Shown here one piece after another: positions 13,784-58,963 of a DNA stretch of 64,000 nt; position 1 is the first letter of the stretch, and each line of letters begins with the position of its first letter. Both the position numbers and the translations under genes were made by a program. Location: NCBI RefSeq assembly GCF_055900595.2, contig NZ_CM148325.1; one strand, 5' to 3'. A model generated the notes under the pieces. That model saw only the letters and a program-made list of their open reading frames with translations, did not search any database and was not told where the DNA came from.

Positions 13784-16096
13784 ATGCCTCGCCTGTTAAC
13801 CAAACGCGGCTGCTGGATAGCGCTGGCAGCTGCGCCTTTTCTCCTTTTTTTTGCCGCGTGGGGAGCAGATAAACTCTGGCCCCTGCCATTGCATGAAGTC
13901 AATCCCGCACGCGTAGTCGTGGCGCAGGATGGTACGCCACTCTGGCGTTTCGCCGATGCTGAGGGCATCTGGCGCTATCCGGTAACCATCGAAGATGTCT
14001 CTCCGCGTTACCTTGAAGCACTGATCAATTATGAAGATCGCTGGTTCTGGAAGCATCCGGGGGTGAATCCATTCTCGGTGGCGCGCGCAGCATGGCAAGA
14101 TCTCACTTCGGGACGGGTTATTTCCGGCGGCAGCACACTCACCATGCAGGTTGCTCGTCTGCTTGATCCTCACCCCAAAACTTTTGGCGGCAAAATTCGC
14201 CAGCTCTGGCGCGCGTTTCAACTGGAATGGCACTTGTCTAAACGTGACATTCTGACCTTGTATCTTAATCGCGCTCCGTTTGGTGGTACGTTGCAGGGGA
14301 TCGGTGCGGCAAGCTGGGCATATCTCGGAAAATCGCCTGCGAATTTAAGCTATTCCGAGGCGGCAATGCTGGCGGTGTTACCACAAGCGCCCAGCCGACT
14401 GCGTCCGGATCGCTGGCCGGAACGAGCCGAGGCCGCACGTAATAAAGTGCTCAATCGGATGGCTGCGCAAGGTGTGTGGTCCCGTGAGCAGGTAAAAGAA
14501 TCTAGTGAAGAGCCCATCTGGTTGGCACCCAGACAAATGCCGCAACTGGCACCGCTGTTTTCGCGCATGATGCTCGGTAAAAGCAAAAGCGACAAAATCG
14601 TTACTACGCTGGATGCTGGTTTACAGCGTCGTCTGGAAGAACTGGCGCAAAACTGGAAAGGACGATTGCCACCGCGCAGTTCGTTGGCAATGATCGTTGT
14701 TGATCATACTGATATGAGTGTGCGCGGCTGGGTAGGATCGGTTGATCTTAATGATGATTCCCGCTTTGGGCATGTCGATATGGTCAATGCGATCCGATCG
14801 CCGGGATCGGTACTCAAACCGTTTGTTTATGGTCTGGCGCTGGATGAAGGCTTGATCCACCCTGCATCGCTGTTGCAAGACGTTCCCCGGCGCACTGGTG
14901 ATTATCGACCAGGCAACTTTGACAGCGGTTTTCATGGCCCGATCAGCATGAGCGAGGCGCTGGTGCGCTCTCTGAATTTACCTGCTGTGCAGGTGCTGGA
15001 AGCCTATGGGCCGAAACGGTTTGCGGCAAAGTTACGCAATGTTGGATTGCCGTTATATCTGCCCAACGGCGCTGCACCGAATCTTTCGCTCATTCTCGGC
15101 GGCGCAGGTGCAAAACTGGAGGATATGGCTGCAGCGTATACCGCATTTGCTCGCCACGGTAAGGCGGGTAAGTTGCGCTTACAGCCGGGGGACCCATTAC
15201 TTGAGCGACCGTTAATGTCGCCGGGGGCCGCGTGGATTATCCGCCGTATTATGGCAGATGAAGCGCAGCCGCTTCCGGATGGCGCTTTGCCACGCGTCGT
15301 ACCACTGGCGTGGAAAACAGGAACCAGTTATGGCTATCGCGATGCATGGGCTATTGGCGTTAACGCTCGTTACGTAATTGGGATCTGGACTGGCAGACCG
15401 GACGGTACGCCCGTTGTCGGTCAGTTTGGCTTTGCCAGCGCCGTACCGCTGTTGAATCAGGTCAATAATATCTTACTGTCGCGCAGTGCGAATCTGCCGG
15501 AAGACCCGCGTCCTGATTCTGTAAGCCGTGGCGTTATCTGCTGGCCGGGTGGGCAATCATTGCCAGAAGGCGATAGCAATTGCCGCCGTCGTCTTGCCAC
15601 CTGGCTGCTCGAAGATAGCCAGCCACCAACATTACTTTTACCGGAGCAAGAAGGAATAAGTGGGATTCGTTTCCCCATCTGGCTTGATGAGCAAGGTAAA
15701 CGTGTTGCTGCTGATTGTCCTCAGGCTCGACAAGAAATGATTAATGTCTGGCCATTACCACTTGAACCCTGGCTACCTGCTGCTGAACGACGAGTAGCGC
15801 GCTTACCTGGAGCATCAACAAATTGCCCGCCCTATGGTCGCGATGCTCAGGTACCTTTACAGTTGATTGGTGTGCGTGATGGCGTAATTATCAAACGTCT
15901 GCCAGGAGCTACTGATGCGTCATTACCAGTACAATTAAGCGGAGGAACAGGCGAACGCTGGTGGTTTCTTAATGGTGAACCGTTAGCTGAACGCGGGCGT
16001 AACGTGACTCTGCATTTGACAGAGAAAGGCGATTATCAATTGCTGGTAATGGACGAAATGGGGCAGGTGGCGACAGTGAGATTTGTCATGCAGTAG
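13784..16096 (+). CDS. pbpC: penicillin-binding protein 1C (transglycosylase/transpeptidase)
   Basis: 770-aa ORF starting on the nucleotide after the yfhM stop; glycosyltransferase motifs followed by a transpeptidase domain. Confidence 0.9.
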   Translation: MPRLLTKRGCWIALAAAPFLLFFAAWGADKLWPLPLHEVNPARVVVAQDGTPLWRFADAEGIWRYPVTIEDVSPRYLEALINYEDRWFWKHPGVNPFSVARAAWQDLTSGRVISGGSTLTMQVARLLDPHPKTFGGKIRQLWRAFQLEWHLSKRDILTLYLNRAPFGGTLQGIGAASWAYLGKSPANLSYSEAAMLAVLPQAPSRLRPDRWPERAEAARNKVLNRMAAQGVWSREQVKESSEEPIWLAPRQMPQLAPLFSRMMLGKSKSDKIVTTLDAGLQRRLEELAQNWKGRLPPRSSLAMIVVDHTDMSVRGWVGSVDLNDDSRFGHVDMVNAIRSPGSVLKPFVYGLALDEGLIHPASLLQDVPRRTGDYRPGNFDSGFHGPISMSEALVRSLNLPAVQVLEAYGPKRFAAKLRNVGLPLYLPNGAAPNLSLILGGAGAKLEDMAAAYTAFARHGKAGKLRLQPGDPLLERPLMSPGAAWIIRRIMADEAQPLPDGALPRVVPLAWKTGTSYGYRDAWAIGVNARYVIGIWTGRPDGTPVVGQFGFASAVPLLNQVNNILLSRSANLPEDPRPDSVSRGVICWPGGQSLPEGDSNCRRRLATWLLEDSQPPTLLLPEQEGISGIRFPIWLDEQGKRVAADCPQARQEMINVWPLPLEPWLPAAERRVARLPGASTNCPPYGRDAQVPLQLIGVRDGVIIKRLPGATDASLPVQLSGGTGERWWFLNGEPLAERGRNVTLHLTEKGDYQLLVMDEMGQVATVRFVMQ

Positions 16097-42024: not shown

Positions 42025-42030
42025 TTCACA

Positions 42031-43245
42031 ATGGAGAGTGACCCGATGCTGACCGATACCAAACTGAAAAACCTCAAAGCGCGGGAAAAACTTTATAAAG
42101 TTGCAGACCGTGATGGGCTGTATGTAACCGTATCTCCCAAGGGATTGGTGACGTTTCGCTATGACTATCGAATCAATGGTCGTCGTGAAACGTTAACTAT
42201 TGGTCGCTATGGTGACGGTATTTCTCTGGCGCAGGCGCGCGAAAAATTAGTGGAAGCCAAAAAACGCGTAAATGCAGGAATATCGCCCGCTGGAGAGAAG
42301 CGTGACGGTAAAACAAAGCGAAAAGAAGAAAAGACACTCCACGATTTTACCGTCAGCTACATGAAACACACCCGGCTGGCGGACAGCACAAGGGCGATGA
42401 AGCAAAGCATTATCGACAGAGACATCACGCCAGTATGGGGGCGCAAGCTGCTGTCAGAGATAACCCCCTCTCTCCTACGTGAGTATTGCGACAAGATAAA
42501 AGCGCGTGGTGCGCCAGCGACGGCGATTCAGGTTCGCAATATCGTTAGTGCGGTATTTAAGTTCGCCGCGCTTCACGGCGACTATTACCCCAATCCTGCC
42601 GAAGAGGTTTTACCGGCTTCAATTGCGACATTCGAAGCGCGCGACAGGGCGCTCAAGCCAGAGGAGATAGGCTGGTTTTTCAATCAGCTTGAACAAACGG
42701 GTACATTACCCACCATCAAGCTGGCCATTAAATTGGTTTTATTAACGATGGTACGTAAAAGTGAACTGCTGAACGCTCCGTGGGGTGAGGTTAATTTTAA
42801 TGCCTGCCTTTGGACGATTGACGCCAGCCGGATGAAGGGATCACGGGATCATAATGTTTATCTGTCCCGGCAGGCACAGGACATTCTGATTGCCCTGAAA
42901 ATGTGCGCAGGAAGCAGTGATTGGGTTTTGCCTTCATGCAATCAGTCGTCGCATAAGACCATGTCGGCGGCGACCTTAAACCGGGTCATTAATCTTACGG
43001 TTAAGCAGGCGCAGGAACGGGGGATCAGGCTGGCGTCGTTTTCCGTTCACGATATGCGCCGAACGGCATCGACGTTATTGCATGAGGCGGGGTTTAATTC
43101 CGACTGGATAGAAAAATGCCTCGCGCACGAGGAAAGAAGCGTCAGAGCCGTTTATAACAAAGCGGAATACGCAGAGCAGCGCCGTGATATGTTGCAGCAG
43201 TGGGCGGATATGGTTGATGGGTGGATCAAGCAATACCGCCCGTAA
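42031..43245 (+). CDS. int: tyrosine-type site-specific integrase (P4-like family)
   Basis: 404-aa ORF; N-terminal LTDTKLKNLKAREKLYKVADRDGLYVTV arm-binding type sequence and C-terminal catalytic region (HDMRRTASTLL..CLAHEE..VYN); alternative start ATG 42046. Confidence 0.9.
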   Translation: MESDPMLTDTKLKNLKAREKLYKVADRDGLYVTVSPKGLVTFRYDYRINGRRETLTIGRYGDGISLAQAREKLVEAKKRVNAGISPAGEKRDGKTKRKEEKTLHDFTVSYMKHTRLADSTRAMKQSIIDRDITPVWGRKLLSEITPSLLREYCDKIKARGAPATAIQVRNIVSAVFKFAALHGDYYPNPAEEVLPASIATFEARDRALKPEEIGWFFNQLEQTGTLPTIKLAIKLVLLTMVRKSELLNAPWGEVNFNACLWTIDASRMKGSRDHNVYLSRQAQDILIALKMCAGSSDWVLPSCNQSSHKTMSAATLNRVINLTVKQAQERGIRLASFSVHDMRRTASTLLHEAGFNSDWIEKCLAHEERSVRAVYNKAEYAEQRRDMLQQWADMVDGWIKQYRP

Positions 43246-43248
43246 GTA

Positions 43249-43503
43249 CTATGCGGGGATCTTGGTACCAGAGCGCTTTGGGACTTTGGCCAGATTTTTC
43301 TGTACCGCGTTATCAATATGGTGATGGTTATTTTCCTGCCGTGCTTTGAGCCAGCGTTCCACTTCCTCTTTGTCCCACGCGACGGCGCGCTTCGTTAGCG
43401 CAAAACGTTTGGGAAACAGGCCTTTTTGCTCCAACGCATAAATCGTACTTTCAGAGAGTGGCACCATCTGTAAAAGCACGTTTTTTCTAATGGCAATTTT
43501 CAT
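43249..43503 (-). CDS. AlpA/Vis-family phage transcriptional regulator (excisionase-like)
   Basis: 84-aa ORF resembling AlpA (..LSESTIYALEQKGLFPKRFALTKRAVAWDKEEVERWL..); adjacent to and divergent from int. Confidence 0.75.
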   Translation of the reverse strand: MKIAIRKNVLLQMVPLSESTIYALEQKGLFPKRFALTKRAVAWDKEEVERWLKARQENNHHHIDNAVQKNLAKVPKRSGTKIPA

Positions 43504-44314
43504 TGTTTATTCCTTTAATCCAAAGGCACTCAGTTCTGATAACAGATCCTTTTTTACCAGCAGCGGCAGATTGCTTTGTCTCTTTACGCCAGCCGGTTAG
43601 CAAATCGTTATACATTTCGGTGTCGTAGCCGCTGATAACCACGCTTCCTTGTAACCGGGTGACGGTCTCCAGTAAGCGCAGGTGGGCACCATCGTCCATT
43701 TCGTGGCGATAATATTTGTTAGTCAGATTACGGGTGCTATGAACATACGGCGGATCGACAAAATGCAGCGTGTCGGCGGCGTCATGATCCAGAATACACT
43801 GGATGGCATCGCGGTTTTCCACCAGAACCCCTTCAAAACGCTGACCAACGGCGGCCAGATTATCGGGCATACGGCTCCAGATGTGTTGGGCCGTTCCACT
43901 GGCGCGTTTAGTGTCCAGCCGAAAGCCGGTAGTGCCTTTAGTTGCCCCGGCAGAACCGAAGCCCATCGTGGCGCGAATCACTAAACGCCTTGCCTGTTCA
44001 ACAGAATTTTTCCCATAGCGATAGGCCGAAATAAACTCGGTGCGGGAATAGGGTGTCAGGCTGCAGGCTTCAACCAGTCTTTCGCGCAGTTGTGGGGTAC
44101 GAAGAACGGCGAACAGGTTAACGACGTCGCCATCCAGATCGTTGTAAACCTCGGCGTAGCTACGTGGTTTTCTGAGCAGTACGCTGGCTGCACCGCCGAA
44201 GGGTTCCACATAGCATCTGTGGGCCGGAAAGTGGCTAATGATCCACGGAGCTAGTCGCCACTTGCCGCCGTGGTAGCGGATTGCAGGGTGCTTAATCATC
44301 CAGTTTTTCTCCAC
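43487..44314 (-). CDS. Dam-family DNA N6-adenine methyltransferase (paralog 1)
   Basis: 275-aa ORF with N-terminal YHGGK..RCYVEPFGGAAS AdoMet motif and catalytic DPPY motif. Confidence 0.8.
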   Translation of the reverse strand: MEKNWMIKHPAIRYHGGKWRLAPWIISHFPAHRCYVEPFGGAASVLLRKPRSYAEVYNDLDGDVVNLFAVLRTPQLRERLVEACSLTPYSRTEFISAYRYGKNSVEQARRLVIRATMGFGSAGATKGTTGFRLDTKRASGTAQHIWSRMPDNLAAVGQRFEGVLVENRDAIQCILDHDAADTLHFVDPPYVHSTRNLTNKYYRHEMDDGAHLRLLETVTRLQGSVVISGYDTEMYNDLLTGWRKETKQSAAAGKKGSVIRTECLWIKGINNENCH

Positions 44315-44901: not shown

Positions 44902-47559
44902 TTAACGTTGAAAAACCCAACACTTCACCGTCGCCGGGCGGCGCGGTGCGGCTGGGTAACGGCGGTTAAATTCAGCGTTGATGCCGCTGTTAACCGTTCT
45001 GACTTCAATAAACTTGTGGGTACGGCTGGTTTTTAGCACTCGCTTCAAATCGCTGATCGGCGGGATCTGCTGGCGGCGCTCGGTAGCCAGTTGAATAAAG
45101 TGGTTAAGGTTAACGGCGATAAGCTGTTCATCGCGCGAGTGGTTGAGCTGTGGTTCGTCGTCGCCATCGAGGAAGTCGAAAATATCCCAGAACTCCTGCA
45201 CCAGAGGATGGTCGGCGCTGATGGCCTGTTGGCGCTCCAGACTGAGGCGGATAAACATTTCTCTGGTCGCCTGTAGCTGCTCTTCCGTGACCGGAATAAC
45301 CAGCGCCAGCGCGTCGAGCAGCGCCATAAGCTGGGCGTGGTTTTTAATGATGCGGATATGGCGAATATCTGGGTGGGAGTGAAGTTGCTGCTCGTATAGC
45401 GGGATCTGACGGTTAACGCACTCCAGCACGGCCTGTTCCGCCAGCGCTGCCTTCAGCATAAAGCCGGAAAGCTGTTCTACCGGCAGGCGTTCGAGCTGCT
45501 CGGCAGCGACCTTGGTCTGAGTATTCTGGCCGCTGCGGTCGGTGTACAGGTGAATAATACGTTCCAGCACCGGGTTAGAGGCGCTAACATCGGCGTTTTG
45601 CGCAATCACAATCGCGCCCCGGAACGGCGGTTCATAGGTCTCGTTGCCGCTGTTACGCAGACCGCGAGAACGCACCGACCGCCCGTTATAGGCGGTTTTC
45701 AGCTCTTCCCAATCAAAGCCACGCTGCTTTGCCCCCTCCTGATTACGGTCACCCTCGATCAGCACCACCGGCATATTTGCTACCTGCGCAAAGTTGCGCG
45801 CGCGGGCGGCCAGCGTTGATTTAGACGGATCGAAACCTTCATAGTCGCGTCGGCCCAACAGTTTCCAGAGGAACTCTATCAGCGTGGTTTTACCGCTGCC
45901 GGGTTCGCCAACGATTTCCAGAAATGGAAAGCTCTTGTGCTTGTCGCGGATCTGTTCGGCAAACATCGTCCCAAACCAGTACGCCAGCGCCACAAACCCC
46001 TTTGCGCCAAACGCCTGCCAGAGTAGCTGGGGCCACTGGCTGTCCATCTGTTTTAAATTGTCGTTCAGCGTCAGGCTGACCGACTGGTTCAGGCTTTTAA
46101 GGCTAAGTTTGCCCATGTCGAAGAAGTCTTCTTCGTTGAGTGTGTACAGCCGACCATCGCGAACGGCCAGATCGTTGAACACGTAAGCGCGGTATTCTTT
46201 GCTGTAGCCGATAAAATCAGTGGTCTGGACAGTTTTGATTTTGGGAAGCTGCTTGAGCAGCAACTTATCTAACTGCTGACTGGTGCCGGTGAAGATGCCG
46301 CCCTGCGCGATATGCAGCAGGCGCTTTTTGAATTCTGAGCCGCTGGAAAGTTGGGAGCCGGTGAAGGTGTTTTTTATCGGTGGAGTGTCGTCGGGGAAGT
46401 TAATGCGAAAGTAATACCAGCTTTCGTCGGTAATGGTGTTGGCCTGATAGTAGAGGGCGGTCGGGTAGCAGTTGGCTATCTCAACAACGGCGGCTGACTC
46501 CTGTAGCGCTTTATGTTTGGCTTCTTCTTCGTCCAGCTCCTCTTTGCCGTTATACATCACGTTATCAAAGGCACGCATATAACGGTCAATATCCAGCTTG
46601 AACCAGTACAGGCGGCTGTCGAACTCGAAGTGAAACTCTTTGCGTTCGGTACGCTCATGCATCAGTAATGCTTTGGCATTCGGATTGGGAGCGATCAACA
46701 GTGAACCGTAGTAACGATATTTTTTAATCAGATCCGGGTTTAGCCGATCGCGCTGGTGCAAATCGTTCCAGTCCAGCTTGGTGCGGGAATAGGGCGTTTG
46801 TGCGGCGGTGGAAAGCCAGCCGTCGTCGCGGCTGCGTTTTACCCAGCGGCGGGTGTAATTCATGCCCGCTTTGTCGTTATCCAGCGCCCAGACCAGTAAA
46901 GGACGCTTTTTATCCACGAACAGCGCGGCCAGTTGGCTTAACGCCTGCGCCGGATAGTTGTTACAGGTCATCAGGGAAACGGCGGCAATGCCGTGGTGGT
47001 GCAGGGCGATAGCGTCAAAAATGCCCTCAACCAGCCAGATCTCCTGCTGTTCTTCCAGCTTAAGCGTTGGCAATTGCCACCATAGCCCGCTGTAAGCGCC
47101 GTGAAAATTGGCTTTGCGATCGCCGAAACGCTGTGGGCGGTCAACGATCCGCTCCCACCACACGCCGTCAGCCAGCGGGAAACGCACAGTGGCCGAGCCG
47201 AGATCGCGCCGTGCGTCATAGTAGTTCTCTTGAGCGTAACAGTTACGGAGCAGCGAAAGGTCAAAGCCGCGCATCTCGCGCAGGTAGGCATCGGCGGCGG
47301 CCTGTGGGTTTTCCGGGGTTGGGGGATATCTGTCTGACCAGCTTTCAAATAGATCCGGGTACACCTCTTTGATATGGATTTCGGCATTGCATTTATTCAG
47401 GCGACCGCAGCGCAGTACCCACGGGCTGATGGCGTAGGTGTACAGCTCTTTTTTCTGGCAGTCCGGGCAGACGCCCTGCCGCAGCCAGTCGCCCTGTTCT
47501 TTAAAGGAAAAATCGGCTAGCAGTCGCCGCGTAATTTCCTGATGAAGTTGTGGTTGCAT
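44902..47559 (-). CDS. phage/plasmid primase-helicase (zinc-binding + TOPRIM-like primase fused to P-loop NTPase; P4 alpha-like)
   Basis: 885-aa ORF; N-terminal CPDC..C..C zinc motif, EGIFDAIAL TOPRIM-like segment, Walker A GEPGSGKTT in the C-terminal half. Confidence 0.75.
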   Translation of the reverse strand: MQPQLHQEITRRLLADFSFKEQGDWLRQGVCPDCQKKELYTYAISPWVLRCGRLNKCNAEIHIKEVYPDLFESWSDRYPPTPENPQAAADAYLREMRGFDLSLLRNCYAQENYYDARRDLGSATVRFPLADGVWWERIVDRPQRFGDRKANFHGAYSGLWWQLPTLKLEEQQEIWLVEGIFDAIALHHHGIAAVSLMTCNNYPAQALSQLAALFVDKKRPLLVWALDNDKAGMNYTRRWVKRSRDDGWLSTAAQTPYSRTKLDWNDLHQRDRLNPDLIKKYRYYGSLLIAPNPNAKALLMHERTERKEFHFEFDSRLYWFKLDIDRYMRAFDNVMYNGKEELDEEEAKHKALQESAAVVEIANCYPTALYYQANTITDESWYYFRINFPDDTPPIKNTFTGSQLSSGSEFKKRLLHIAQGGIFTGTSQQLDKLLLKQLPKIKTVQTTDFIGYSKEYRAYVFNDLAVRDGRLYTLNEEDFFDMGKLSLKSLNQSVSLTLNDNLKQMDSQWPQLLWQAFGAKGFVALAYWFGTMFAEQIRDKHKSFPFLEIVGEPGSGKTTLIEFLWKLLGRRDYEGFDPSKSTLAARARNFAQVANMPVVLIEGDRNQEGAKQRGFDWEELKTAYNGRSVRSRGLRNSGNETYEPPFRGAIVIAQNADVSASNPVLERIIHLYTDRSGQNTQTKVAAEQLERLPVEQLSGFMLKAALAEQAVLECVNRQIPLYEQQLHSHPDIRHIRIIKNHAQLMALLDALALVIPVTEEQLQATREMFIRLSLERQQAISADHPLVQEFWDIFDFLDGDDEPQLNHSRDEQLIAVNLNHFIQLATERRQQIPPISDLKRVLKTSRTHKFIEVRTVNSGINAEFNRRYPAAPRRPATVKCWVFQR

Positions 47560-47647
47560 TGCCAGTACCTTTATTCAGGTAATACTTACCCGTCGCATAG
47601 ACACGTTGTTTATGCGTTGTGGTTGTGAGTCTTTTATTTACTGAGCG

Positions 47648-47896
47648 TTACGCGATTTTCTGCTTTTGCAGAAATTGCCCGCGTGTGGATAGCGGTATGT
47701 GTATCTTAGGATTCGGGCAACCGCTGGGTACTACCGTTCCCATCACGGTCTCCATCGCGATAAATGAAAACGAACAGTTAACGTTCTTGCACTGGTAATA
47801 GAGCTTACGTACCAGCGGTGACATATATTCGCTGCTGCGAATTATCGCCTTACCGTCGCAGTGTGGGCATTTCATCATGTCCGATCTCCTTACCAC
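47648..47896 (-). CDS. ogr: Ogr/Delta-family zinc-finger late-gene transcriptional activator
   Basis: 82-aa ORF (likely start MKCPHCDG at 47875) with CPHC..22 aa..CKNVNC zinc-finger spacing typical of P2 Ogr / P4 Delta. Confidence 0.8.
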   Translation of the reverse strand: MVRRSDMMKCPHCDGKAIIRSSEYMSPLVRKLYYQCKNVNCSFSFIAMETVMGTVVPSGCPNPKIHIPLSTRGQFLQKQKIA

Positions 47897-48201
47897 TTTT
47901 AACTAACTGAAACACTAACGCTTTTCGTTAACGGACTGACGAAATAGTGTGATGCCGTTCAAAAAAATGATTCTTGCCATGCTGGACATCGAACGGTTCT
48001 GCTCCAGCGCTAATGCTTACAGTTCCGCGATTTCAGCGGGGAGCAGACGCATTGCCACCGGTTTGTTCGACATCACCCCGCGGGGTGCTCGTGAGCGTAA
48101 GACGTTCTCATTTGTTTTCATGGTGGTATATTGTGGTTATTAACATTACACAATCTATAATTCCCTCAATTGAGTGAATTGTCAATGGTAATTATATCCA
48201 A

Positions 48202-48540
48202 ATGAAAGAATTTGGCATCCGTTTGAAGGAAGAACGTATCCGACTTGGCCTTGATCAAGACGGCTTTGGACAACTTGGGGGCGTGAAGAAAAACGCACAA
48301 AGTAACTATGAGAATGGACTGCGCAAGCCGGACAGTGACTATCTTGCTGGCATAGCGGCAGCGGGAGTTGATGTTCTGTATGTTCTAACAGGCAACCGCA
48401 CGCCTGTGGCTACGTTGTCCAGTAAAGAGAGTGTGTTGGTGGAGAACTATCGTTCTGCTACGCCAGAACACCAGTCCACCCTTGACACGGTTAGCGCTGC
48501 GCTTGCGCAACCGGGAGTAGGGAAAGCAGCTAAGGGATAA
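48202..48540 (+). CDS. XRE-family helix-turn-helix transcriptional regulator (Cro/CI-like)
   Basis: 112-aa ORF with classic HTH_XRE N-terminus (FGIRLKEERIRLGLDQDGFGQLGGVKKNAQSNYENGLRKPDSDYLAGIA); divergent from ogr. Confidence 0.8.
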   Translation: MKEFGIRLKEERIRLGLDQDGFGQLGGVKKNAQSNYENGLRKPDSDYLAGIAAAGVDVLYVLTGNRTPVATLSSKESVLVENYRSATPEHQSTLDTVSAALAQPGVGKAAKG

Positions 48541-48580
48541 CGAGTAGAATGAATTTGGTTATTGTCTGTATGGAGGCAAA

Positions 48581-49153
48581 ATGAAGTTGAATAATCTGGT
48601 TGCTCTTTACAGGAACATGACAGAGCAAAAATTGGATAGGGTTAAATTCCCATACAGACACAATAATTTACATTTTGATGTATTTTTCTTTATTGATGGA
48701 AAACCGTTTGAGCTTCTTTTCGGAGCATTAGGCGCTAATCTTTGCTTTCGTCTAAAAGTCGAGAAGGGATTCGTCATAAATCCTAATCTGGGAAGTGAGA
48801 CTTATAAAGAATTATGCAAGGCGCTAGGTTTGAAATATGACCCTGCCAATCCATTTAGAACAAGTAAGTTTTTTGAAGATTTTGATGGGAAAATCCCTAC
48901 ATCGGTTACTGTTAAGAATAAGGCAAAATATACTGATATTGCTGTGCATGTCAGGGATGTTGAAGAAGCAGACAGAATATATTTCTGTGGATGGAAAAAC
49001 AACAATGAAGAAAAGAGTCATGTTACTGAAGATAATTTAAAGAAAACGAAAGAGTTTTTAGGGTATCAGGCTTTTCTTGTTTGTAAGGAAAAGAATATTA
49101 GCAGTAGATGGACTGATTTAGAAAATAAAGCAAAAGATTTTTATTTACCATAG
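48581..49153 (+). CDS. hypothetical protein (cargo gene 1, no recognisable domain)
   Basis: 190-aa ORF with strong SD GGAGG; A+T-rich, Lys/Asn-rich; first gene of compact operon. Confidence 0.6.
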   Translation: MKLNNLVALYRNMTEQKLDRVKFPYRHNNLHFDVFFFIDGKPFELLFGALGANLCFRLKVEKGFVINPNLGSETYKELCKALGLKYDPANPFRTSKFFEDFDGKIPTSVTVKNKAKYTDIAVHVRDVEEADRIYFCGWKNNNEEKSHVTEDNLKKTKEFLGYQAFLVCKEKNISSRWTDLENKAKDFYLP

Positions 49154-49167
49154 GATTGTGAGGTTAT

Positions 49168-50316
49168 ATGTCTGATATTTCATTAGGGTGCGTGGTTGTT
49201 CATAGGTTGATAAAAGAGCAACATAAAGATTTCGATCACTCAAAACCATATAGTCGCCGTGATACGGTTCTTGACCGAAATAATGAAATCGTAATTAAAC
49301 TAGTGTCCAGTATAGCCGCATTGTATGGTAAAAAATCTAATAGCTCGCATTATGGTATATTTAATTTAGATGAAACACGCAGGGGGCCTTTTCCAGCGGA
49401 ATTTGATAAATATCGGAATGATACATCCAAGAAGTTAGACGATGAATTGTTTATAGGATTATCAAAAAATGTTATGCATCAGTTATATATTGAGGCAAAG
49501 GATCGACCTGCTGCATCAGGAGGATTACTTCTTTTTGCTGATTATATCAGTAAATCCGTGCGTTACTTTCTTATTGCAATGATTAAGCAAAAGGAAGGTA
49601 TAGTTATTAGTGATAAATTAGAGCCAAAGGAGTTAGAGCATCTTGATCTGGCAAAACTAAACCAGGCGGCACGAATAAACTATGATTTGTATGATAAATA
49701 TATTTCCGCTGATGAGAATGAAAGACAGGATGTTAATTATTTAAGTTTTGTTAGTCCCAGTTCTAACCAGACAACTTCAGGGTATTTCATTACTGCCTTA
49801 GGTTGTGATAAAGGTAATACATCAACTAAAGCTACGAGTAATTTAATTAATGAATCTTTTAACTTCTTCAGAAATCATCAAGAATTAAAGGATAATGCCC
49901 GTAAATTTAAAAATGAAATTATTGAGTATTTATTCGATTGTTCTGAAAATAACATTTCAGCTAAGCTCTCTGTTGTTAGTGAGATGGCGGCGAAGCATAT
50001 GGTTAATTTAGAAGATGACATTAAAGATAAATTGTCAGAAGAATTATATGCTCATTTGAATAGTGAAAGTATTCGTGTGCCTGTGGAATTTAGGGTAAGC
50101 AAATCAGTAGTTAAGAAAAACAGAAATATTAAATATACAAGTGATAATGTTAATTTTGAGTTTAAATCTAGTTTACTAGGCAATACTCTTGATAATGAGA
50201 TATGCTATAATAAGAAAACTGGACATTTAACTTTTACTCGGATTACTCCTGAGAAAAAAAGTGAAATAGCTCAATTGCTTGATGAGTTAATAAAAGAAAG
50301 AAATAGCGAAAAATAA
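49168..50316 (+). CDS. NdpA/YejK-like nucleoid-associated protein homolog (cargo gene 2)
   Basis: 382-aa ORF, SD GTGAGG; collinear similarity to E. coli YejK recalled from memory (VVVHRLIKEQH vs IALHQLIKRDE; GGLLLFADY..VRYFLIAMI vs GGxVLFCHY..VEYLLVAVL). Confidence 0.55.
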   Translation: MSDISLGCVVVHRLIKEQHKDFDHSKPYSRRDTVLDRNNEIVIKLVSSIAALYGKKSNSSHYGIFNLDETRRGPFPAEFDKYRNDTSKKLDDELFIGLSKNVMHQLYIEAKDRPAASGGLLLFADYISKSVRYFLIAMIKQKEGIVISDKLEPKELEHLDLAKLNQAARINYDLYDKYISADENERQDVNYLSFVSPSSNQTTSGYFITALGCDKGNTSTKATSNLINESFNFFRNHQELKDNARKFKNEIIEYLFDCSENNISAKLSVVSEMAAKHMVNLEDDIKDKLSEELYAHLNSESIRVPVEFRVSKSVVKKNRNIKYTSDNVNFEFKSSLLGNTLDNEICYNKKTGHLTFTRITPEKKSEIAQLLDELIKERNSEK

Positions 50317-50318
50317 GG

Positions 50319-50957
50319 TTGCTTAATATGTCATGTTTTGAAACGGTTGTTGAGCTTTTCAGATATGTAGGGCGTCCTAAATTTGATGCTATTAATAATC
50401 GTTTTTCAGCAACTATTTCTTATGATGCTCATATATATGAACTCTTAGTTTCTTTGCAACCTCATACAGCGTGGGGAGAAATTGAAGAGATTGTCATTGA
50501 TGATGTGGATATAGATGTTGATGATAGCCTTCCCGCTAAAGGAACATCAATAACACTGACAATCTCTATATCAACTGGAGCTAGTGAGTCATTTTTTATC
50601 GATATTAAAGATCTAATTCAAAAGTCTCCGATGTTAAATAGAGGTATTTTAAGAAAGTCTTTTTACTTGGTTGAGGAAGATTTTTATTTTAATGAAGGAA
50701 TGGTTGAGGGATTAGCAAAAATACCAGAACTATCTGTTTTAAAGAATCTTTGTGATTTTATTTTATGTCTATCAAAAGTTGCACACTACAGCAATAGTAA
50801 AAGTGATGATGTATGCCATAAGTTAGTTTTCTTGAAAAATACTAATGCTAAGTCATTACCTTTAATTATTGAAACTAATGTTGATTATTCACTTCTTTTA
50901 ACAGGTATTAAGGATTTAAAAATCATCGAATCTTTTTCTGATGAAAAAAAGCTATAA
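50319..50957 (+). CDS. hypothetical protein (cargo gene 3)
   Basis: 212-aa ORF beginning 2 bp after the preceding stop; acidic, no recognisable domain. Confidence 0.55.
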   Translation: MLNMSCFETVVELFRYVGRPKFDAINNRFSATISYDAHIYELLVSLQPHTAWGEIEEIVIDDVDIDVDDSLPAKGTSITLTISISTGASESFFIDIKDLIQKSPMLNRGILRKSFYLVEEDFYFNEGMVEGLAKIPELSVLKNLCDFILCLSKVAHYSNSKSDDVCHKLVFLKNTNAKSLPLIIETNVDYSLLLTGIKDLKIIESFSDEKKL

Positions 50958-51001
50958 CGGATGATAATTATTTTGAGCGAAAAGGGATTTTCATTAATAC
51001 G

Positions 51002-51583
51002 GTGGTCGATTTTCTTGAATCAATCGATGTAAAGAAACAGTTTCATTTTTTATTCTGTGAGTGGGATGAATTTCTAAAACTATACCATAATAACCTCGGT
51101 GTATATCTTAGTGGTTTTTCATTTCATAAAGTAAGAAAGGAAGTGGCAGAGGCAGAAGCTAATTTAGCTGAGCGTTTTTCAAAAATAATGTCAGACATGA
51201 TAGCTAAGCTTTTAGGTATTCCTGTTTCTTTGGTTGCTACTTTTGGCATGATAAAATTAAATACCCTGCCGGAAATGTTAGTGGTTTTTTTAGGTGTATT
51301 GCTCACGTCGATAATTATGTTTTTTATTGTAAGAAGTCAATACACACAGTTTAGGATGATTTGTGATGCTAAAGATATTATATTTTCCCCATTAGTGAAA
51401 AAATCTGTAGGTTATACAGAAGATTTGAAAAAATTAGTATGCAATGCAAAGGATAATTTAGACAAAAATCAGGTCATGTTAAATCGTTACCTTCTTTTCT
51501 TTCAATGCTTATGCTGGATTCCGACAGCCTTAGGTGGTGGAATGATCTTAATGGCTATTATGGTTCATTTAGGATTACTATAA
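51002..51583 (+). CDS. predicted membrane protein (cargo gene 4)
   Basis: 193-aa ORF with apparent GTG start; hydrophobic segments (IPVSLVATFGMIKL.., MLVVFLGVLLTSIIMFFIV, ..CWIPTALGGGMILMAIMVHLGLL); 3' end overlaps convergent gene D by 6 bp; start codon uncertain. Confidence 0.45.
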   Translation: MVDFLESIDVKKQFHFLFCEWDEFLKLYHNNLGVYLSGFSFHKVRKEVAEAEANLAERFSKIMSDMIAKLLGIPVSLVATFGMIKLNTLPEMLVVFLGVLLTSIIMFFIVRSQYTQFRMICDAKDIIFSPLVKKSVGYTEDLKKLVCNAKDNLDKNQVMLNRYLLFFQCLCWIPTALGGGMILMAIMVHLGLL

Positions 51584-58204: not shown

Positions 58205-58963
58205 TTAATTCAGGATAATCAGTTCTGATGTGGTGCTGGCTGGCTTTCCACCTACGGTATAGCGAATCCCTACCGTTGAGAATGTCAGGCCGTGGAAGAT
58301 ATCGCGCATTTCCGGGATGTCGTTAACCGAGATAATCATCCGGCCCTGCATGGTGCGCGCCAGCTCTGCCATACGCTGGTACTGCTCAAGGCCAAATGGT
58401 ACGCCGTAGCCTTCGGTTTTCCAGTATGGTGGGTCGCAGTAGAACAGGGTATGCGGGCGGTCATAGCGGCGAATACAGTCGGCCCAGTCCAGATTTTCAA
58501 TGCAGACGCGCGCCAGCCGCAGATGGGCGGCGGATAAATCCTCTTCCATACGCAGCAGGTTCAGGCGCGGCGGTGAGGTGGTGGCGGTACCGAACGTGCG
58601 ACTTTCCACTTTGCCGCCGAATGCCAGCTTTTGCAGATAGTAGAAGCGCGCCGCGCGCTGGATATCGGTCAGCGTTTCTTCCGGGGTGATCTGGAGCCAG
58701 CGGTACATTTCGCGGCTGACCAGCGACCATTTAAACTGGCGGACAAACTCTTCTAAATGGTGCTGAAGTACGCGGTAGAGGTTGGTAACGTCACCGTTGA
58801 TATCGTTCAGCACCTCGGCCTGTGCGGGCTGTTTCATAAAGAACAACGCTGCCGCCCCGCAGAACGGTTCAACGTAGCAGCGGTGTTTGGGAAACAGTGG
58901 CAGAATGTGTTTTGCCAGCCTGCGCTTACCGCCGATCCACGGAATAACGGGTAACGTATTCAA
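58205..58963 (-). CDS. Dam-family DNA N6-adenine methyltransferase (paralog 2), moron between G and FI
   Basis: 252-aa ORF with IGGK..RCYVEPFCGAAA and DPPY motifs; start overlaps upstream stop (ATGA). Confidence 0.8.
   Translation of the reverse strand: MNTLPVIPWIGGKRRLAKHILPLFPKHRCYVEPFCGAAALFFMKQPAQAEVLNDINGDVTNLYRVLQHHLEEFVRQFKWSLVSREMYRWLQITPEETLTDIQRAARFYYLQKLAFGGKVESRTFGTATTSPPRLNLLRMEEDLSAAHLRLARVCIENLDWADCIRRYDRPHTLFYCDPPYWKTEGYGVPFGLEQYQRMAELARTMQGRMIISVNDIPEMRDIFHGLTFSTVGIRYTVGGKPASTTSELIILN

Follow-up and report, generated by a model that had tools for sequence, protein, structure and literature searches.

Gene Content and Order of the Prophage

The stretch of DNA analysed here (64,000 nucleotides of contig NZ_CM148325.1, assembly GCF_055900595.2; hereafter the window) contains a P2-like (Peduoviridae) prophage inserted directly after guaA. 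This report concerns the putative immunity switch of that prophage, at positions 47,897–48,201, which lies between ogr and a gene for an XRE-family helix-turn-helix (HTH) protein. The features assigned at the locus are listed in Table 1.

The P2-type genes of the prophage include gpD, U, T, sheath, tube, baseplate, capsid, terminase, ogr and int. One arm has the order int, AlpA-like HTH gene, Dam-like methylase gene, FtsK-gamma/DUF7673 gene, Toprim primase-helicase gene and ogr. From the ogr side, the opposite strand carries the XRE gene and four AT-rich open reading frames (ORFs), and gpD, U, T and further tail genes converge on this cargo. The control region is the single divergent junction between the repressor gene and the early operon, and 48122–48201 is the sole candidate immunity region of the prophage.

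Three complete Escherichia coli genomes carry the same prophage at 98–99% identity; these near-identical copies are the only matches among complete E. coli genomes. The order int/AlpA-like/DUF7673/Toprim primase/ogr/small gene, facing XRE/cargo/gpD/U/T, is found in the window and in all three, and also in an Erwinia genome (L007), Edwardsiella anguillarum (L090), two metagenome contigs (L091 and L092) and the temperate phages Carl1 and phiE202. The full comparison set comprised about 90 related loci, ranging from E. coli, Erwinia and Edwardsiella to Pseudomonas and the Burkholderia phages phiE202 and Carl1. Judged by sequence, the early region of this lineage resembles that of the two Burkholderia phages and not that of P2 itself. 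A DNA search of a phage collection with the 1-kb region gave no match, a pattern scan of metagenomes gave four near-identical copies that added no divergence, and Rfam gave no match at 47000–49000.

Table 1. Features of the switch locus and of the adjoining early and cargo regions.
Feature	Position	Strand	Description
int	42031–43245		
AlpA/excisionase-type HTH gene	43249–43503		84 aa; adjoins int
Toprim primase-helicase gene	44902–47559		885 aa
ogr	47648–47878	−	Late-gene activator, 76 aa; second gene of leftward early operon; Pfam Ogr_Delta, E 1.1e-19
Arc-like ribbon-helix-helix (RHH) gene	47915–48121	−	68 codons; first gene of leftward operon; intact in relatives
Candidate rightward (repressor/lysogenic) promoter	48105–48132	+	TTCTCA (48105–48110), 16 bp, extended −10 TGgTATATT (48124–48132)
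Control region	48122–48201		80 bp, 30% GC; between Arc-like ATG and XRE ATG
P_E, candidate early (lytic) promoter	48157–48185	−	TTGACA (48185–48180), 17-bp spacer, AATTAT (48162–48157)
Candidate repressor operator (dyad)	48159–48180		Arms AATTCCCTCAA and TTGAGTGAATT; core TCCCTC-AATT-GAGTGA (48162–48177)
Second leftward promoter-like site	48191–48218	−	ATGCCA-16-TATAAT; −10 at 48196–48191; 11.0 bits
XRE-family HTH gene	48202–48540	+	112 aa; candidate immunity repressor; Pfam HTH_3/HTH_31; PHROG transcriptional repressor families
AT-rich cargo	48581–51583	+	DUF6037, NA37 nucleoid-associated-like and split 418-aa genes

An Overlooked Arc-Like Gene

The initial annotation treated the whole interval as intergenic DNA between ogr and the XRE gene. 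Two thirds of it is in fact an overlooked gene for an Arc-like protein, and ogr is not the first gene of the leftward unit; the 305 bp contain the 207 bp of this gene and the 80-bp control region. The end of ogr previously placed at 47896 belongs to a GTG-extended ORF; in RefSeq, which annotates the same prophage in E. coli GMF054 and L725, the gene begins at the ATG corresponding to 47878. In the E. coli copies RefSeq also annotates a small minus-strand gene between ogr and the XRE gene. The gene was overlooked because it is a pseudogene in this copy. Codon 35 is TAA (48019–48017), the result of a single nucleotide polymorphism at 48019, where the plus strand has A in the window and C in other copies (codon GAA in the intact relatives).

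The differences from the copies in Erwinia, L092 and Edwardsiella carry a coding signature, with 35 of 56 falling at third codon positions. The same holds for the first 48 nt (16 codons), where 9 of 14 do so, and the corresponding 16-residue N-terminal extension is retained by the relatives from Erwinia, Edwardsiella and metagenomes; the gene begins at the ATG at 48121. A length of 68 aa is called in 12 of 13 database clusters. The protein matches PHROG 3431, "Arc-like repressor", with an E value of 3.4e-24 over residues 1–66 of the 67-position profile, as well as the PDB profile 2kke (E 0.0025), and scores 18 bits against Pfam RHH_5, under the 26-bit cutoff. An AlphaFold monomer model (predicted local distance difference test score 74.5) shows one long helix without RHH topology and is uninformative. 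Homologues at 52–55% identity adjoin the XRE homologue in phages phiE202, phiE094 and RsoM1USA.

The premature stop is common to an identical metagenome contig (L086), and a TAA is found at the same codon in a diverged, decayed Arc-like copy of Enterobacteriaceae UBA5654 (L006). It could represent a sequencing error, shared descent, or recurrent inactivation locking the prophage in lysogeny. Shortly upstream of ogr, a terminator-like hairpin with a T-rich tail (minus strand, 47913–47933) overlaps the Arc-like stop codon and could attenuate read-through into ogr and the primase gene.

Promoters and a Candidate Operator in the Control Region

In the 30% GC core of the control region single-sequence scoring cannot discriminate among promoters, and candidates were ranked by comparative evidence only. 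P_E matches the consensus at 10 of 12 positions, scores 10.4 bits with a position weight matrix (PWM) and has a predicted start near 48150. It falls exactly at the position at which a promoter is fixed in the family. Among 81 related loci, the top-scoring minus-strand promoter of about 50 places the −35 at −17 to −19 and the −10 at −40 relative to the XRE ATG, typically in the form TTGAC(A/C)-16-TAGAAT (spacer 16 or 17), with scores of up to 15 bits compared with a shuffle 95th percentile of about 11. The −35 of the window promoter is conserved in the alignments.

The spacer between the −35 and −10 of P_E is filled by a dyad. With 10 of 11 pairs matched, it ranks first among the palindromes of the 305 bp (equalled or beaten in 18 of 500 shuffles), and it is the sole match to TCACTC-N4-GAGTGA at ≤1 mismatch in 64 kb. 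Its position recurs among relatives: of 76 unique upstream regions from related loci, 33 have their best palindrome centred at −30 to −33 relative to the ATG, where a uniform distribution expects about 4. The arms vary across the family (TCACTC, CCACTC, CACCCT, ACACCCC, CCATTC, GCGTAT, GTGGTC and others), and the TCACTC-N4-GAGTGA form also occurs in Erwinia, in L092 as a perfect 20-bp palindrome, and at several Pseudomonas loci. The shared pattern, with two half-sites of 6 bp that are separated by 4 bp and centred 10 bp apart, fits an HTH dimer.

The strongest argument for the proposal that the XRE protein binds this dyad comes from Edwardsiella, in which the N-terminal HTH domain of the XRE protein and the DNA from about 48135 rightward have been replaced as one block. 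The replaced DNA has a different dyad, TTGCAG-N4-CTGCAA, at the same place. Outside the swapped block there is little change: identity is 84% for the Arc-like protein and almost complete for the C-terminal half of the XRE protein.

For the rightward direction, TTCTCA-16-TGgTATATT scores 11.0 bits, has a predicted start near 48139 and faces P_E, with its −10 abutting the Arc-like start codon. Despite diverged flanks, this −10 persists as TATA(T/G/C)T in Erwinia, L091, L092, Edwardsiella, Carl1, Pandoraea and phiE202, and the wider motif CAT-(G/A)G-N-G-(G/A)TATA-N-T beside the Arc-like start extends from E. coli to Burkholderia and Pandoraea. Of the candidates for a repressor promoter, the one with the extended −10 at 48124–48132 is the best conserved. 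A further block, TTAAC-N-TT-N-CACAA (48140–48153), lies between its predicted start and that of P_E and is conserved among loci with the Arc-like gene. A repeat, GTGGTAT/GTGGTTAT, with 10 bp between its copies at 48123 and 48133, is poorly kept in Erwinia. The second leftward promoter-like site is kept in L092 and not in the Erwinia or Pseudomonas relatives, and its status is uncertain. Neither the XRE gene nor the Arc-like gene has a recognisable Shine-Dalgarno sequence; a leaderless XRE mRNA (−10 AATTAT at 48190–48195) was considered and rejected, with a poor −35 and no support from relatives.

A different promoter and operator had been named in the initial annotation, namely a TATAAT at 48156–48161 and, just upstream, an imperfect palindrome, which at 48131–48153 corresponds to TTGTGGTTATTAACATTACACAA. 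Taken literally, this would make the hexamer the −10 of the XRE gene and cargo, and the palindrome an operator for the XRE protein or another factor. The hexamer is indeed present on the plus strand, 41 bp 5′ of the XRE ATG (48202), and is perfect and scarce, with 15 copies on both strands of the window, two of them in the 80-bp core (48156–48161, plus strand; 48196–48191, minus strand). A simple promoter scan found no plus-strand promoter using it, there being no −35 with ≥4 of 6 matches 16–18 bp upstream, and the weak TGGTTA-16-TATAAT pairing scores 8.9 bits in the PWM scan, whose null, from shuffles of the 180-bp region, has a mean best score of 8.6 bits and a 95th percentile of 11.1. Five of the six bases are shared with the minus-strand −10 of P_E. 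In close relatives the hexamer decays to CATATT (Erwinia, L091) or TATCTT (L092), and the Pseudomonas relatives read GATTCT or ATTCTA on the plus strand and TAGAAT on the minus strand; most relatives have a good −10 on the minus strand only, paired with TTGAC(A/C), although the best plus-strand match of a few Pseudomonas relatives has its −10 at −46/−47. The element conserved at this position is the opposite-strand −10 driving the Arc-like/ogr/primase operon and not a −10 of the XRE gene, and the TATAAT could act as a second, overlapping rightward −10.

The palindrome fared less well. Only 6 of its 11 symmetric pairs match, and the best description, TATATTGTG-N13-CACAATCTA (TTGTG-N13-CACAA; 48127–48157, 8 of 9), is equalled or bettered in 225 of 500 dinucleotide shuffles (45%) of the 305 bp, which is chance level. 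Its right part falls in the TTAAC-N-TT-N-CACAA block, kept as far as Burkholderia and Pandoraea, but no relative beyond the E. coli/UBA5654 group retains the left arm (Erwinia, L091, L092, Edwardsiella, Carl1 and Pandoraea among those compared), and the adjoining dyad at 48159–48180 is the better and conserved candidate. As a pair, this promoter and this operator are unlikely to constitute the control of the XRE gene.

The XRE Gene as Candidate Repressor

HTH_3/HTH_31 are the only Pfam domains of the XRE protein, and it has no cleavage domain. It is 43–62% identical to the product of the same-position gene in Burkholderia, Ralstonia and Pseudomonas P2-like phages, homologues were found in 80 genome loci, and the Carl1 homologue is annotated as "immunity repressor". 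PDB sequence matches are to ImmR and to a 434-derived protein. Compared with P2 C, which is a 99-aa HTH_3 protein, identity is 28% over 46 aa of the HTH, with a marginal pairwise E value of 5e-4. No other repressor candidate was found in the annotated GMF054 copy of the prophage, in which several small unnamed proteins were left unexamined; the HTH protein encoded beside int is of the AlpA/excisionase type. A LexA-box core, CTGT-N8-ACAG, inside the XRE gene (48376–48391) is the only one in 64 kb, and is abolished by synonymous changes in relatives; it was set aside as chance.

The XRE protein could instead be a dedicated regulator of the defence-type cargo (CapH- or C-protein-like), with lysogeny kept by something else. 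The gene is always directly upstream of variable defence-like cargo, its product has a weak PADLOC capH match (E 0.004), and the XRE gene, control DNA and cargo survive in a non-phage island of UBA5654. Against this, the XRE gene is constant across cargo changes, with the exchange junction inside its 3′ end; the dyad does not precede the cargo but occupies the spacer of the promoter that drives the ogr/primase operon; and XRE homologues hold the immunity position in isolated temperate phages. The dearth of other repressor candidates in GMF054 points the same way, and no CapP-like gene was found in the gene lists of the window, GMF054, L725 and L090–L092 or in part of those of L006 and L007. 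Such a cargo-dedicated role seems improbable to us.

The UBA5654 island (L006, 2595–11524) has the XRE gene, switch DNA and three cargo genes beside a MobA/MobL relaxase, AbiGi and an integrase; it has neither ogr nor primase, and the Arc-like gene is decayed. This arrangement suggests a repressor-cargo module captured or retained outside the phage.

A Model of the Switch

We put at about three in four the probability that the interval is the lysis-lysogeny (immunity) switch of this guaA-integrated P2-family prophage, with the XRE protein as immunity repressor and the cargo co-expressed with it. The analysis establishes gene content and synteny, the constant position of the leftward promoter and the dyad, the exchange of dyad and HTH domain as one unit, and a pattern of differences in the Arc-like gene typical of coding sequence; the binding partners, the choice of rightward promoter, the joint transcription of the cargo and the part played by the Arc-like protein are inferred. 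The general idea of a promoter-operator that couples cargo or immunity to the prophage state, put forward in the initial annotation, is thereby supported; the promoter and palindrome named for it are not.

In this model a dimer of the XRE protein would bind the 16–22 bp dyad. With the dyad placed between TTGACA and AATTAT of P_E, binding would shut off the early operon, which encodes the Arc-like regulator, Ogr, the primase-helicase, the DUF7673 protein and the AlpA-like excisionase. The repressor gene and cargo would be read rightward, probably from the extended −10 abutting the Arc-like start, with the overlapping TATAAT as an alternative, which would make the two promoters divergent and overlapping. 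Upon infection or induction, P_E would fire and the Arc-like protein would be made first, in the role of Cox, Apl or Cro, presumably repressing the rightward promoter through the conserved sequence that separates the two starts. Ogr, encoded by that transcript as well, would then activate late promoters (CTTGTA-N11-TACAAG). If the premature stop in the Arc-like gene is real, the lytic arm would be crippled and the prophage biased toward the repressor-on, cargo-expressing state.

Several points weigh against this model. The window dyad has one mismatch (CCC for CAC). Only some 12 bp separate the predicted face-to-face starts (about 48139 and about 48150), compared with 40–60 bp in characterised P2-like phages. 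Carl1 and Pandoraea do not retain the −35 of the rightward promoter, and because this −35 lies inside coding sequence its conservation is ambiguous. Each promoter score in the window falls within the range of shuffled AT-rich sequence, the best being 11.0 bits against a 95th percentile of 11.1. No peptidase domain in the XRE protein, antirepressor or LexA site was found. The persistence of the XRE gene, switch DNA and cargo in the UBA5654 island indicates that the XRE gene can function, or at least survive, without the early operon. Finally, as part of the putative leader RNA the dyad can form a hairpin (z −2.1).

The last point admits the reading that the dyad is no protein operator but works at the RNA level, as a leader hairpin that alters the stability or translation of the XRE mRNA. 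A leader from 48139 folds around the dyad with −15.1 kcal/mol, and the genes on both sides lack a recognisable Shine-Dalgarno sequence. Any palindrome folds, however, and the change of the dyad with the XRE DNA-binding domain while the rest of the XRE protein and the Arc-like protein stay constant is not predicted of an RNA element, whereas the half-site and spacer geometry across the family fits an HTH dimer. We regard the RNA reading as very improbable.

Late Promoters and Other Features of the Prophage

In the GMF054 prophage (L003), late promoters at 15336, 21302, 24807 and 29814 share the dyad (G/A)CTTGTA-N11-TACAAGC. Three of the four (15336, 24807 and 29814) have (C/G)ACCAT 45 nt from the dyad centre, and the fourth (21302) has ACCAAT at 41 nt. 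The dyad together with (C/G)ACCAT is presumably the Ogr box plus −10 of this lineage. The palindrome of the initial annotation has the same TGT-N13-ACA spacing as these promoters (TTGTG-N11-TACAC at 48131–48151, 8 of 12 flank positions matching), and a weak −10, TACGCT (48099–48094), would put its centre at about −54 for a leftward start, as in an Ogr-dependent late promoter within the switch serving, for example, ogr feedback or late XRE/cargo expression; this reading, the least probable of all, was rejected. On neither side is (C/G)ACCAT found 45 nt from the centre, Erwinia, L091 and L092 no longer have the TGT, Edwardsiella lacks the site altogether, and chance alone would yield TGT-N13-ACA about once in every 4 kb.

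Over the start codon of int, at 42026–42041, lies TCACAATGGAGAGTGA, a two-mismatch copy of the operator consensus; as a second operator it is at chance level by shuffles. In phiE202 (L094) a perfect 12-bp palindrome, GGTCAATTGACC, is found directly 3′ of the ATG of the repressor gene gp21. It resembles the upstream half-sites GTGGTC/GGCCAC and may be a second operator in that phage.

The window prophage contains two ORFs for D12-class/Dam-like adenine methylases (43487–44314 and 58205–58963). The one between the AlpA-like gene and DUF7673 is missing from GMF054 and L725, in which the DUF7673 protein is shorter and has no FtsK-gamma domain.

Variable Cargo Downstream of the XRE Gene

The cargo has a GC content of 32%, compared with 50–57% in the prophage backbone, and occupies a variable AT-rich slot (48541–51583) whose equivalent is the XRE-to-gpD interval in L001, L002, L007, L090, L091 and L092. 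The left exchange junction lies inside the 3′ end of the XRE gene, which is constant while the cargo changes. The window and GMF054 have DUF6037, NA37 and the 418-aa protein, whereas L725 and CEC15 have NA37 with a GTP pyrophosphokinase (PADLOC candidate PDC-S33). SMODS and S_4TM proteins are found in Erwinia and L091; DUF6037, ThsB_TIR, caspase-like and ASCH proteins in Edwardsiella; and DUF2971 and Abi_alpha in L092. The cassettes across relatives thus span SMODS+S_4TM systems of the cyclic-oligonucleotide-based anti-phage signalling (CBASS) kind, TIR/caspase, Abi, NA37 with a RelA/SpoT-like protein, and DUF6037 and NA37 with a membrane protein. In the window, a 1-bp deletion in an A-run near 50943 splits the single 418-aa ORF of GMF054 into ORFs of 212 aa and 193 aa (50319–51583). 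This frameshift is the second apparent lesion in this copy of the prophage and a possible homopolymer assembly error.

No terminator-like site and no consensus plus-strand promoter was found between the XRE gene and the first cargo gene, and because of this it is plausible that a lysogen expresses the cargo together with the repressor. The cassette of the window has no PADLOC model, and no mention of DUF6037 was found in the searched literature. The published P2 hotspot (Rousset et al. 2022) is a different locus, between gpA and gpQ (PMC9122126). We tentatively raise the possibility, which we rate as rather less than even, that the XRE-gpD slot is an undescribed defence hotspot read from the immunity promoter, that DUF6037/NA37 is a new anti-phage system, and that Arc-like null alleles are selected to lock the prophage in the cargo-expressing state.

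Comparison with Known Switches

In P2 and 186 the promoters are face to face, the repressor operators lie over the lytic promoter, and the first early gene encodes a small DNA-binding protein (PMC7498355, PMC1904268). P2-type phages have lytic and lysogenic promoters that face each other with starts 40–60 bp apart (PMC7498355), and the Cox or Apl sites lie over or between them (PMC7498355, PMC1904268). The operator of P2 C consists of two direct repeats, and the repressors of P2-like phages have been divided into two types only, P2 C and 186 CI (PMC1904268). In the P2 annotation Pe lies against the C start and Pc against the cox start, and the C operators flank the Pe −10.

The locus described here is like that of P2 in having a repressor of about 100 aa with HTH_3, divergent from the early operon, with the candidate lytic promoter beside the repressor start and the candidate lysogenic promoter beside the first early gene. 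The predicted repressor site likewise lies over the lytic promoter, and the first early gene encodes a small DNA-binding protein. It differs in the candidate operator, an inverted repeat in the promoter spacer in place of direct repeats flanking the −10, and in the first early gene, whose Arc-like product has no alignment to P2 Cox and does not match the Cox/Apl type, whose members bind direct repeats spaced by one turn of the helix. In addition, ogr is within the early operon, whereas P2 ogr comes after gpD and has a promoter of its own; the repressor gene is not followed by int; a Toprim primase-helicase is present as opposed to gpA replication; and the intergenic region is 80 bp and not 114 bp.

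The closest likeness is to phiE202, Carl1 and Ralstonia phages (Tigrvirus, Kisquinquevirus), which have gpD, cargo and an XRE gene facing Arc-like, ogr and primase genes, with 47–62% identity in the XRE protein and 52–55% in the Arc-like protein. They share the motifs CAT-GG-N-GGTATA-N-T and TTAAC-N-TT-N-CACAA, the dyad, and a TGTCAA about 17 bp before the repressor ATG. They differ in hosts, GC content, dyad sequences (GTGGTC-N4-GGCCAC type) and cargo. No experimental dissection of these switches was found in the searchable literature, nor any report pairing Carl1 with a repressor.

A resemblance to lambdoid phages is also apparent. The 434 and other lambdoid CI-Cro switches combine an XRE/434-type repressor with a palindromic operator overlapping the lytic promoter, operator and DNA-binding domain are exchanged as immunity blocks, and in lambda the accessory exclusion genes rexAB are co-transcribed with cI in the lysogen. 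The present locus has counterparts in its palindromic candidate operator over the lytic promoter, the block exchange in Edwardsiella and the accessory genes behind the repressor gene. Unlike lambdoid switches, it has one detectable dyad as opposed to a tripartite OR, and no S24 peptidase domain; its counter-regulator would be an RHH protein, not a Cro-type HTH protein, probably acting at different sites; and the promoters are probably face to face as opposed to back to back. It differs from CapH-type systems in that the XRE protein, for all its weak capH match, has no CapP-like partner in the gene lists checked.

P2-like phages have served as a model for face-to-face promoter switches. Although the lineage has been little studied, elements like this locus are common and nothing about it is surprising in kind. 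It represents a widespread third design, extending from Enterobacteriaceae to Pseudomonas and to phages of Burkholderia and Ralstonia, with a small XRE protein as candidate repressor, an inverted-repeat candidate operator in the spacer of the lytic promoter, a presumed Arc-like counter-regulator, and ogr in the early operon. The comparative set yields concrete operator and promoter assignments, together with a natural swap of the immunity module in Edwardsiella, and the analysis corrects the annotation and gives a clean experimental entry point. The switch probably drives variable defence-type cargo, and its control would tell when the cargo genes are expressed.

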